From Mycoplasmatales bacterium (GTDB taxonomy: Bacteria > Bacillota_I > Bacilli_A > Mycoplasmatales > Mycoplasmataceae), in assembly GCA_965261505.1 (NCBI GenBank), contig OZ253448.1, positions 394,807-458,806 on the forward strand: a DNA stretch of 64,000 bases. Reading direction: 5' to 3'. This document shows positions 63,570 to 64,000 of the stretch, in pieces. The translations under genes and the position numbers were made by a program. Under the pieces are notes generated by a model. The model had not been told where the DNA came from. It saw nothing but the letters and a program-made list of their open reading frames with translations, and did no database searches. The first letter of the stretch is position 1; the number at the start of each line of letters is the position of its first letter.

Positions 63570-64000
63570 TTAATCCCCTTCAATATAAAAATAGCGAGGG
63601 TGTGCCTTGGTAAAACCTAGTATTGGCAGGTACATTTCACAAAGAGTAGGATGATTATAAATAATTGTTACTGGTTTGTAATAAACATAAGGAAATAGTG
63701 AATCCACAAGTCCTCCAATCTGACTTCACTCTTGGTTTAAAGTTCAAGTTACTTCATCACTCTTTCAATCAGAGGGTGGCATTTGCTGTCTACCTGCAAT
63801 ATTAATGAGAAAAGGATCTGTTCTAGAACCATTTAAAGGATTATCTAAAACTTTTTTTTCAGAACTATAGTTTGGAGGAGTTTTAGAAGCAGCAATACTA
63901 AAATTTAAAAAAGGTTCTAAATGAGATAAATTTATTTCATTATATCCATGGGCTCTCCCAATATATTCTGCTCAACTGTATGTGTAATATGAAGATGATC
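63570..64000 (-). CDS. Longer family member (array copy 10), 5' end beyond right edge
   Basis: The frame is open from position 64000 to TAA 63570-63572. The C-terminal ~110 aa (..YSSEKKVLDNPLNGSRTDPFLINIAGRQQMPPSDW...EMYLPILGFTKAHPRYFYIEGD) match the array. The upstream part (..YSWAEYIGRAHGYNEINLSHLEPFLNF..) is not a signal peptide. Confidence 0.75.

Follow-up and report, generated by a model that had tools for sequence, protein, structure and literature searches.

The window analysed here is a 64-kb stretch of DNA (C1:394807-458806) from a genome that forms a single contig of 986 kb. It is Mollicute DNA, has a G+C content of 30%, and uses genetic code 4; a reading under table 11 was rejected because TGA codons then interrupt the ORFs, so that code 4 is required. 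At one end of the window, the last 431 nt of a long gene (63570..64000, minus strand) are followed by nine lipoprotein genes of about 160 aa each, one of them frameshifted (58701..63514, minus strand). The array is flanked by an IS3-family transposase gene (57405..58592, plus strand; NF033516, 1.4e-58).

The frame 63570..63998 (minus strand), which reads ..SSSYYTYSWAEYIGRAHGYNEINLSHLEPFLNFSIAASKTPP, then NYSSEKKVLDNP..., is open under table 4, and the earlier note had taken it for the end of a longer, parent-type gene heading the array. Retrieval of the sequence past position 64000 bore this out: the frame runs on to 65159 and forms an intact ORF of 529 aa (window 63570..65159, genome C1:458376-459965, minus strand; table 4), of which the remaining 1159 nt lie outside the window. 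The opposite case, a short lipoprotein with its start just beyond the window, is rejected by this length. The gene contains eight TGA codons read as Trp, and its orthologues encode proteins of 521–533 aa. The product (the long protein) starts with MKILLNGLLAIGLSSTPAFNLAANK, a signal-like hydrophobic segment without a lipobox, and consists of an N-domain of about 400 aa and a C-terminal module of 100 aa. It has the make-up of an exported multi-domain protein with an N-terminal trafficking signal, and is small and free of RHS/FHA-type repeats.

Between the long genes of two strains (P0001, the gene described here, and P0003, from strain L004), the N-domain shows a dN/dS of 0.37, and purifying selection, as judged from this comparison, is acting on it. 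As to an enzyme or toxin fold of the N-domain, for which the earlier note had proposed a test, none was detectable in family, sequence-profile, and Foldseek searches. Searches of Pfam, NCBIfam, PHROGs, and PADLOC and with a PDB sequence profile gave nothing significant for the long protein, for ten relatives, or for the short lipoproteins. An AlphaFold model based on five sequences was too poor (pLDDT 46), and the model based on a 21-row alignment was used (pLDDT 70.5, pTM 0.61). With this model, Foldseek found no relative in the PDB (best E 0.14, TM at most 0.1). The best match in BFVD had an E value of 0.009 and a TM score of 0.09, and these weak matches, to ssRNA-phage maturation proteins, were judged to be noise. 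The missing fold match may partly reflect the quality of the model, since the N-domain is modelled with only moderate confidence. According to the models, the N-domain and the module both appear to be undescribed folds, and the family was not described in the literature searched.

The model of the long protein displays long helices (aa 185–234) and long beta-hairpins, one of which (239–255/296–309) carries at its tip a helical hairpin that is hydrophobic and rich in GxxxG (aa 259–298; pLDDT below 50). The helical hairpin is strongly hydrophobic in P0001, P0007, and P0019 but only amphipathic or aromatic in P0005, P0006, P0009, and P0010, so that a membrane-active role of the long protein is no more than possible. 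P0019 is a metagenomic protein of 469 aa and a distant homologue of the N-domain, with a hairpin that is likewise strongly hydrophobic; its C-terminal end, either highly divergent or of another kind, faintly resembles the module (…VTLYFNEDNKYADLGIAWVTTIYVKGY…).

The long gene becomes homologous to the short genes abruptly at codon N430 (ACTATAGTTCTGAAAAAAAAG) and remains so up to the stop codon. The C-terminal module defined in this way (N430–D529; 63573..63872, minus strand) is homologous to all of the short genes. A shared module of about 110 aa had been proposed; the sharing stands (tblastn of the module against the nine array copies, E 1e-28 to 1e-58), and the measured length is 100 aa. 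The same E values, together with the compact small alpha/beta domain that AlphaFold predicts from the 21-row alignment (pLDDT 85–95), answer the concern that the shared region might be of low complexity only. The genome carries 19 copies of the module (tblastn, E 1e-12 to 1e-74), and the modules all align as one family. Three parts can be distinguished. The 5' flank (YSSEKKxLDxP) is conserved, the core of 41 aa (module residues 12–52, PLNGSRTDPFLINIAGRQQMPPSDWKSDEVTWTLNQEWSQI; 63717..63839, minus strand) is hypervariable apart from an invariant SDW, and the beta-rich 3' half, again conserved, has LGFTKxHPRYFYIxG as its extreme C-terminal end. The array-wide pN/pS is 0.89 in the core versus 0.39 in the 3' half, a value that is elevated but is not proof of positive selection.

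Short gene 1, at the head of the array, encodes 159 aa and has a core matched to that of the long gene (63035..63514, minus strand). Genes 2–9 (58701..62980, minus strand) comprise four to five core types and include a tandem duplication of two genes; they lie at 62477..62980, 61949..62428, 61407..61898, 60867..61357 (frameshifted), 60339..60818, 59784..60287, 59256..59735, and 58701..59204. The duplicated unit of about 1083 bp occupies 59256..61357, and one copy carries a 1-nt deletion (pseudogene 60867..61357). The view that the short lipoproteins represent the C-terminal domain of larger proteins as an independent unit, exported by itself, was upheld, as every member of the array has its own ATG, a conserved signal peptide, a lipobox, and a -10-like box. 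The roughly 48 nt that precede each short gene contain a T5–7 tract and a TATAAT-like box, the latter some 30 nt away from the ATG; a generic promoter and terminator scan of the sequence was not above shuffles (41 vs 36.4 +/- 6.5). The upstream spacers are identical between orthologous short genes of two strains and hence do not point to phase variation through slippage. Homopolymer slippage as a switch was considered and is unsupported, the T-tracts being 5–7 nt long and unchanged between orthologous copies.

The syntenic site in the related strain (L004; tmk-holB side, IS3) holds only five copies of the short gene, with an IS at the matching border, and its propeller gene is truncated by an IS. 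Some array copies are identical between the two strains and four to five divergent core types persist, which indicates that the array is not being homogenised. The array of 9–10 genes in this species has expanded from a single downstream lipoprotein gene. The short form of about 160 aa is confined to this species and to the sample behind L004 and L005; elsewhere, the module is carried by lipoproteins of 246–344 aa with unrelated N-domains.

The long gene belongs to an operon in which the order is propeller protein, long protein, and then one or more lipoproteins. The propeller gene (P0002, 744 aa) stops 4 nt before the ATG of the long gene, and its product is anchored at the N-terminus, has about nine propeller repeats of the Reg_prop type (Pfam, 2e-14), and ends in a C-terminal domain of about 260 aa. 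Three further paralogues of the propeller part (404–430 aa; genome 115698..116900, 299701..300573, and 558266..559234, the last on the minus strand) do not adjoin long genes. A second intact locus of the genome (locus B, 25137..19547; the window's locus is locus A) has the same three-part order and a long protein that is 46% identical. The gene after the long gene usually encodes a lipoprotein with the module; in locus B it encodes a lipoprotein without the module. There are also a 5'-truncated copy (genome 637237..639177), a degraded copy (genome ~768.9–770.3 kb), and a solo lipoprotein gene (genome 802853..803356). Lipoproteins of 276–278 aa without the module are encoded inside loci B and D (genome 20408..21238 and 768060..768896, both minus strand). 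They consist of two copies of the N-domain of about 125 aa that is present once in the module lipoproteins LP265 and LP276; its repeated motif is W-G/S-x-x-Q-x-x-I-x-x-x-Y-L. Besides the module, this is another family of domains that is shuffled.

Outside this genome, the family had three matches among 5.8 billion clustered proteins, and an exhaustive HMMER search over 1.84 billion representatives gave 33. Among the other GTDB species representatives, one, a 'Mycoplasmatales bacterium' MAG, has the family, as a module-bearing lipoprotein only, and the family is present in two of 40 related genomes. As far as these searches reach, the operon is restricted to a handful of uncultured Mycoplasmatales. 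Locus L005 encodes a propeller protein of 755 aa, a long protein of 522 aa, and two short lipoproteins. In L002 and L003, a 758-aa propeller protein, a 532-aa long protein, and a 327-aa lipoprotein are encoded by genes that abut or overlap. In L013, which comes from a marine sample of TARA, the long gene (528 aa) is preceded by a large gene with the P0002-type C-terminal domain and followed by a gene for a 317-aa lipoprotein and then an IS fragment, and in L015 the long gene is followed by a gene for a 313-aa lipoprotein. The operon order and the length of the long protein are kept down to 31–35% identity, in samples that include the marine one.

The context of L002 and L003 is ICE-like, the trio lying between SSB and ParA genes on one side and VirD4/TraG and VirB4/TraE genes on the other. 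L002 and L003 are one 50-kb contig (ERZ25067893), with the trio at two places beside SSB, ParA, HNH, and restriction-modification genes; the two loci look like a duplicated mycoplasma ICE-like element carrying the trio. The trio might on this evidence be cargo of mycoplasma integrative conjugative elements, or provide them with a mating-pair, recognition, or exclusion function, and a VirD4-like gene lies about 23 kb away in the present genome as well. We regard this as highly improbable, because the loci in this genome, L004, L005, L014, and L015 are placed among core genes (recR/dnaX-tmk, dnaI-fumarase, fba, and rpsO) with no transfer genes adjacent. Membership of the window's own locus in an ICE was rejected, as core genes flank it on either side and the distance to the VirD4-like gene is 23 kb. 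This VirD4/TraG-type coupling-protein gene, the only one of the genome (482636..483871, plus strand; window-equivalent ~87830..89065; PF02534, 4.6e-39), lies past the long gene and probably marks an ICE.

The module sequences are exchanged between the long gene and the lipoprotein genes. The long gene and short gene 1 show no relationship on the 5' side of ACTATAGTTCTGAAAAAAAAG, and on its 3' side they differ at two positions in 165 nt, which is a gene-conversion tract common to the two (63708..63872 and 63173..63337, minus strand). Between these genes, the Nei-Gojobori dS is 0 over module codons 1–52 and 0.54 over codons 53–100. Identical tracts of 100–230 nt centred on the core, with diverged flanks, were also found in L002, L005, L013, L015, and locus B. 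In a maximum-likelihood tree of 48 modules, the long-protein modules are never monophyletic; among pairs known to share a locus, each long-protein module forms a sister pair with a lipoprotein module from that locus. The long genes P0001 and P0003 are 94.4% identical over the N-domain (nucleotide identity; dS 0.12) and 80.4% identical over the module (dS 0.41). A sliding best-match scan resolved their modules into different mosaics of array-type segments with a long-gene-specific 3' tip. Comparisons of this kind show that cores move between the long gene and nearby lipoprotein genes by segmental short-tract gene conversion, in which either direction is possible.

A second kind of exchange is recorded at 10341..11137 (minus strand), a chimeric pseudogene of a 265-aa module lipoprotein, as judged from its identity to sequences of the related contig L014. 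The gene is disrupted by a TAA at codon 11 and a 1-nt deletion in the signal peptide. It had been described as a disrupted gene with an unrelated N-domain of about 110 aa followed by the module; the disruption and the domain order are confirmed, and the N-domain, of the lipoprotein type, measures about 125–140 aa. Upstream of a shared 18-mer (10530..10547), the gene is base-for-base identical to the LP265 gene of L014; after the 18-mer, it is identical to the 3' end of the long gene of L014 (P0007) and to the downstream flank as far as fba. As the gene is an exact recombinant, a crossover within two directly repeated modules must have removed about 4 kb, comprising a propeller gene and the N-domain of a long gene. 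The inactivation of the signal peptide came after the crossover. In the database protein P0017, the LP265 N-domain is joined to a P0007-type module over the whole module length; its crossover point differs from that of the 10341 gene, so that it looks like a second, independent product. Genes are duplicated and deleted by unequal or direct-repeat recombination between modules. The genetic part of our interpretation, namely a conserved operon, a common module, and ongoing conversion, duplication, and deletion, is well supported, and the locus is an unusually clean natural record of these module-mediated processes.

Conversion is expected among nearby repeats, and many copies of the family are pseudogenes, truncated, or deleted (10341, 60867, loci C and D of this genome, and the propeller genes of L004 and L014). 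The long gene could accordingly be seen as an old domain fusion with no special relationship to the lipoproteins, its likeness to them arising from neutral concerted evolution of adjacent paralogues in a decaying, IS-ridden family. We consider this very unlikely: the order of the operon and the length of the long protein are conserved to 31–35% identity, the N-domain is under purifying selection, divergent core types are retained in the array rather than homogenised, and identical orthologous copies persist in two strains.

The cores of the long protein and of a lipoprotein from the same locus are 80–100% identical in six of the nine loci: 40/41 residues in locus A, 33/41 in locus B, 41/41 in L002, 37/41 in L005, 35/40 in L013, and 38/41 in L015. 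The matched lipoprotein gene comes directly after the long gene in five of these six; in locus B, it is the second gene downstream. Long-protein cores of different loci are identical at 7–22 of 41 positions, with the exception of loci A and C (31/41). In L013, L015, and locus B, the match is closer in the core than in the 3' half, normally the conserved part. The unmatched loci are L004 (26/41, though codons 31–60 match the head copy), L014, where the lipoprotein adjoining P0007 has a different core, and locus C (24/41); all three have a damaged propeller or long gene, albeit in a small number of cases. The pattern is suggestive of a same-locus match that may be functionally required. Matched cores could also be a by-product of frequent conversion between adjacent paralogues.

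Two specific functions for the match were weighed. The first is immunity by mimicry, in which the long protein would be a membrane-active (pore-forming) antibacterial or host-directed toxin neutralised by the look-alike lipoprotein. Its glycine-zipper hairpin would insert into membranes and its C-terminal core would set target or oligomerisation specificity, while the same-core lipoprotein would shield the producer in that it occupies the same partner or caps the toxin. In that case, the array would be an immunity repertoire against the variants of relatives, like orphan immunity arrays. Such a role would suit the hydrophobic GxxxG-rich hairpin at the tip of the predicted long beta-hairpin, the matched lipoprotein present in six of nine loci, in five of them encoded by the next gene after the long gene, and the core match that exceeds the match of the conserved flanks in L013, L015, and locus B. 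It would also suit the island-like position of the loci beside IS and restriction-modification genes, in one species inside an ICE-like region. We nevertheless think it unlikely, since no toxin or pore-former fold or family was found, the hairpin is not hydrophobic in P0005, P0006, P0009, and P0010, and an immunity protein homologous to its toxin's own domain corresponds to no known arrangement.

The second is docking, with the module as a homotypic association domain: the long protein, which lacks a lipid anchor, would be held on the wall-less surface by the identical module of the lipoprotein, and conversion would keep both interfaces identical. Such a pairing leaves unexplained why one lineage has two long genes but 9–10 lipoproteins, whose cores are of four to five kinds, and the N-terminal hydrophobic segment of the long protein could serve as an anchor alone. 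These points make docking distinctly unlikely in our estimation, even though cores are matched in six lineages with unrelated lipoprotein N-domains (160-, 276-, and 313–327-aa types), the operon is tightly coupled, and the long protein is without a lipobox.

We presume instead that the module serves in recognition or binding as a domain exposed on the surface, and that recombination varies it on the two architectures that carry it, a reading that we regard as reasonably probable, with the functional step being the inferred one. Lipid-anchored stalks would present the module, and so would the long protein, which probably forms a surface complex together with the propeller protein. The array would serve as a reservoir of expressed genes from which the cell could change the core that it presents, and the match between the long protein and the lipoprotein of the same locus may be a requirement of this function. 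Mollicutes are known for variable surface lipoproteins, and in the systems known so far a single kind of protein varies, either through phase switching or through copies taken from silent cassettes. In the present case, one folded 100-aa domain is common to two unrelated architectures in one operon, the donor copies are complete genes, and ongoing conversion keeps the variable core alike between both architectures. A more far-reaching version, which we find doubtful, is a specificity-matched two-protein system unique to wall-less bacteria, in which a membrane-active exported protein and the lipoprotein of its locus would obligately bear the same 41-aa core for self/non-self recognition or for neutralisation by mimicry. 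Conversion would keep the match, and the expressed array would broaden the choice of partners that are recognised or resisted. Should the match be functional, specificity, recognition, docking, or immunity would follow a new logic in these bacteria, which have neither a wall nor the usual secretion machines.

The comparison with known systems also bears on the analogy drawn in the earlier note, which had likened the short genes to the orphan C-terminal cassettes downstream of polymorphic toxin or adhesin genes. Orphan cassettes of this type occur in polymorphic toxin systems such as Rhs, CdiA, and MafB (Zhang et al. 2012, PMC3482391). The present loci resemble these systems in having a large exported protein with a sharp conserved junction (at PPNYSSEKK) and a variable, polymorphic C-terminus, in having related C-terminal units in tandem directly downstream that recombine with the 3' end of the main gene, and in being island-like. 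The C-terminal domains of those systems are toxins such as nucleases, deaminases, or pore-formers, mostly with a number of unrelated folds; here, by contrast, all C-termini are one homologous 100-aa domain, and no toxin domains were found in Pfam, NCBIfam, PHROGs, PADLOC, PDB sequences, or by Foldseek against the PDB and BFVD. Polymorphic toxin domains are each followed by a dedicated immunity gene, whereas no separate immunity gene and no intervening family of small ORFs is present here. The downstream units are complete, with a start codon, a signal peptide, and a lipobox, unlike 5'-less orphans without an export signal, and the main protein has only 529 aa and no filament or repeat regions. 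The analogy holds as to an exchangeable domain, on the strength of the conversion tracts, the replacement between strains, and the crossover. It fails as to membership among polymorphic toxins, given the lack of a toxin fold and an immunity gene and the completeness of the genes, and the adhesin-type or variable-surface-protein half of it fits better than the toxin half.

Antigenic variation by gene conversion is exemplified by vlhA of Mycoplasma synoviae, MgPa/MgPar of M. genitalium, pilE/pilS of Neisseria, and vlsE of Borrelia. Systems of the vlhA/MgPa type have one expression site and silent, truncated donors. Two papers (PMC2169797 and PMC2632889) touch on such variation. Segmental short-tract conversion that yields mosaic variable regions between conserved flanks, donor copies in tandem, and a variable part in a predicted surface protein of a wall-less bacterium are common to the vlhA/MgPa type and the present system, in which variation is known from differences between strains. 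As judged by sequence, the donors here are neither silent nor 5'-truncated but complete lipoprotein genes, and the recipient, with its unrelated N-domain, is not a lipoprotein. Further, a matched core in two co-encoded proteins is not known from those systems. No similarity to the vlhA or MgPa families was found for any member in Pfam or NCBIfam.

Phase-variable lipoprotein arrays of mycoplasmas (Vlp, Vsp, Vsa, Vpma, and mpl of M. penetrans) switch by site-specific inversion or by long homopolymer or repeat tracts in promoters. They share with the present array the tandem small lipoprotein genes, the near-identical signal peptide, and the strain-variable copy number. The present array differs in that no site-specific recombinase or invertible promoter lies nearby (the only recombinase there being the IS3 transposase), the upstream T-tracts are 5–7 nt long and identical in orthologous copies of two strains, and the variation resides in the core of a folded domain rather than in tandem repeats. 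Two papers on Myxococcus (PMC5562445 and PMC8546572) describe homotypic polymorphic recognition through the variable domain of TraA, together with SitA lipoprotein toxins. The parallels are that domain identity between two molecules would set specificity, that lipoproteins are involved, and that the polymorphism is driven by recombination. There is no homology, Mollicutes have no outer membrane, and homotypic binding of the module is hypothetical here. As the loci lack three features of polymorphic toxins and the silent donors of the vlhA/MgPa type, they are best read as a new, recombination-driven variable surface-protein system that is a member of neither class.

Further observations concern the neighbourhoods of the loci. 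A gene for a DUF1295/ICMT-like membrane protein of 296 aa lies between recR and the propeller gene (L001 5288..6178, minus strand; window-equivalent 67481..68371). Together with the trio and the IS3 element, it breaks up the usually contiguous dnaX-recR-tmk-holB neighbourhood. Genes for C-5 cytosine DNA methyltransferases adjoin four different module loci: 11402..12406 in the window (plus strand; PF00145, 1.1e-87), 639444..640358 in the genome (minus strand), 14188..15201 in L002, and 7400..8122 in L005, the assignments of the L002 and L005 copies coming from precomputed matches. A gene for a Bsp6I-type endonuclease lies beside the methyltransferase gene in L002. The module islands seem to travel with restriction-modification genes or to insert beside them.
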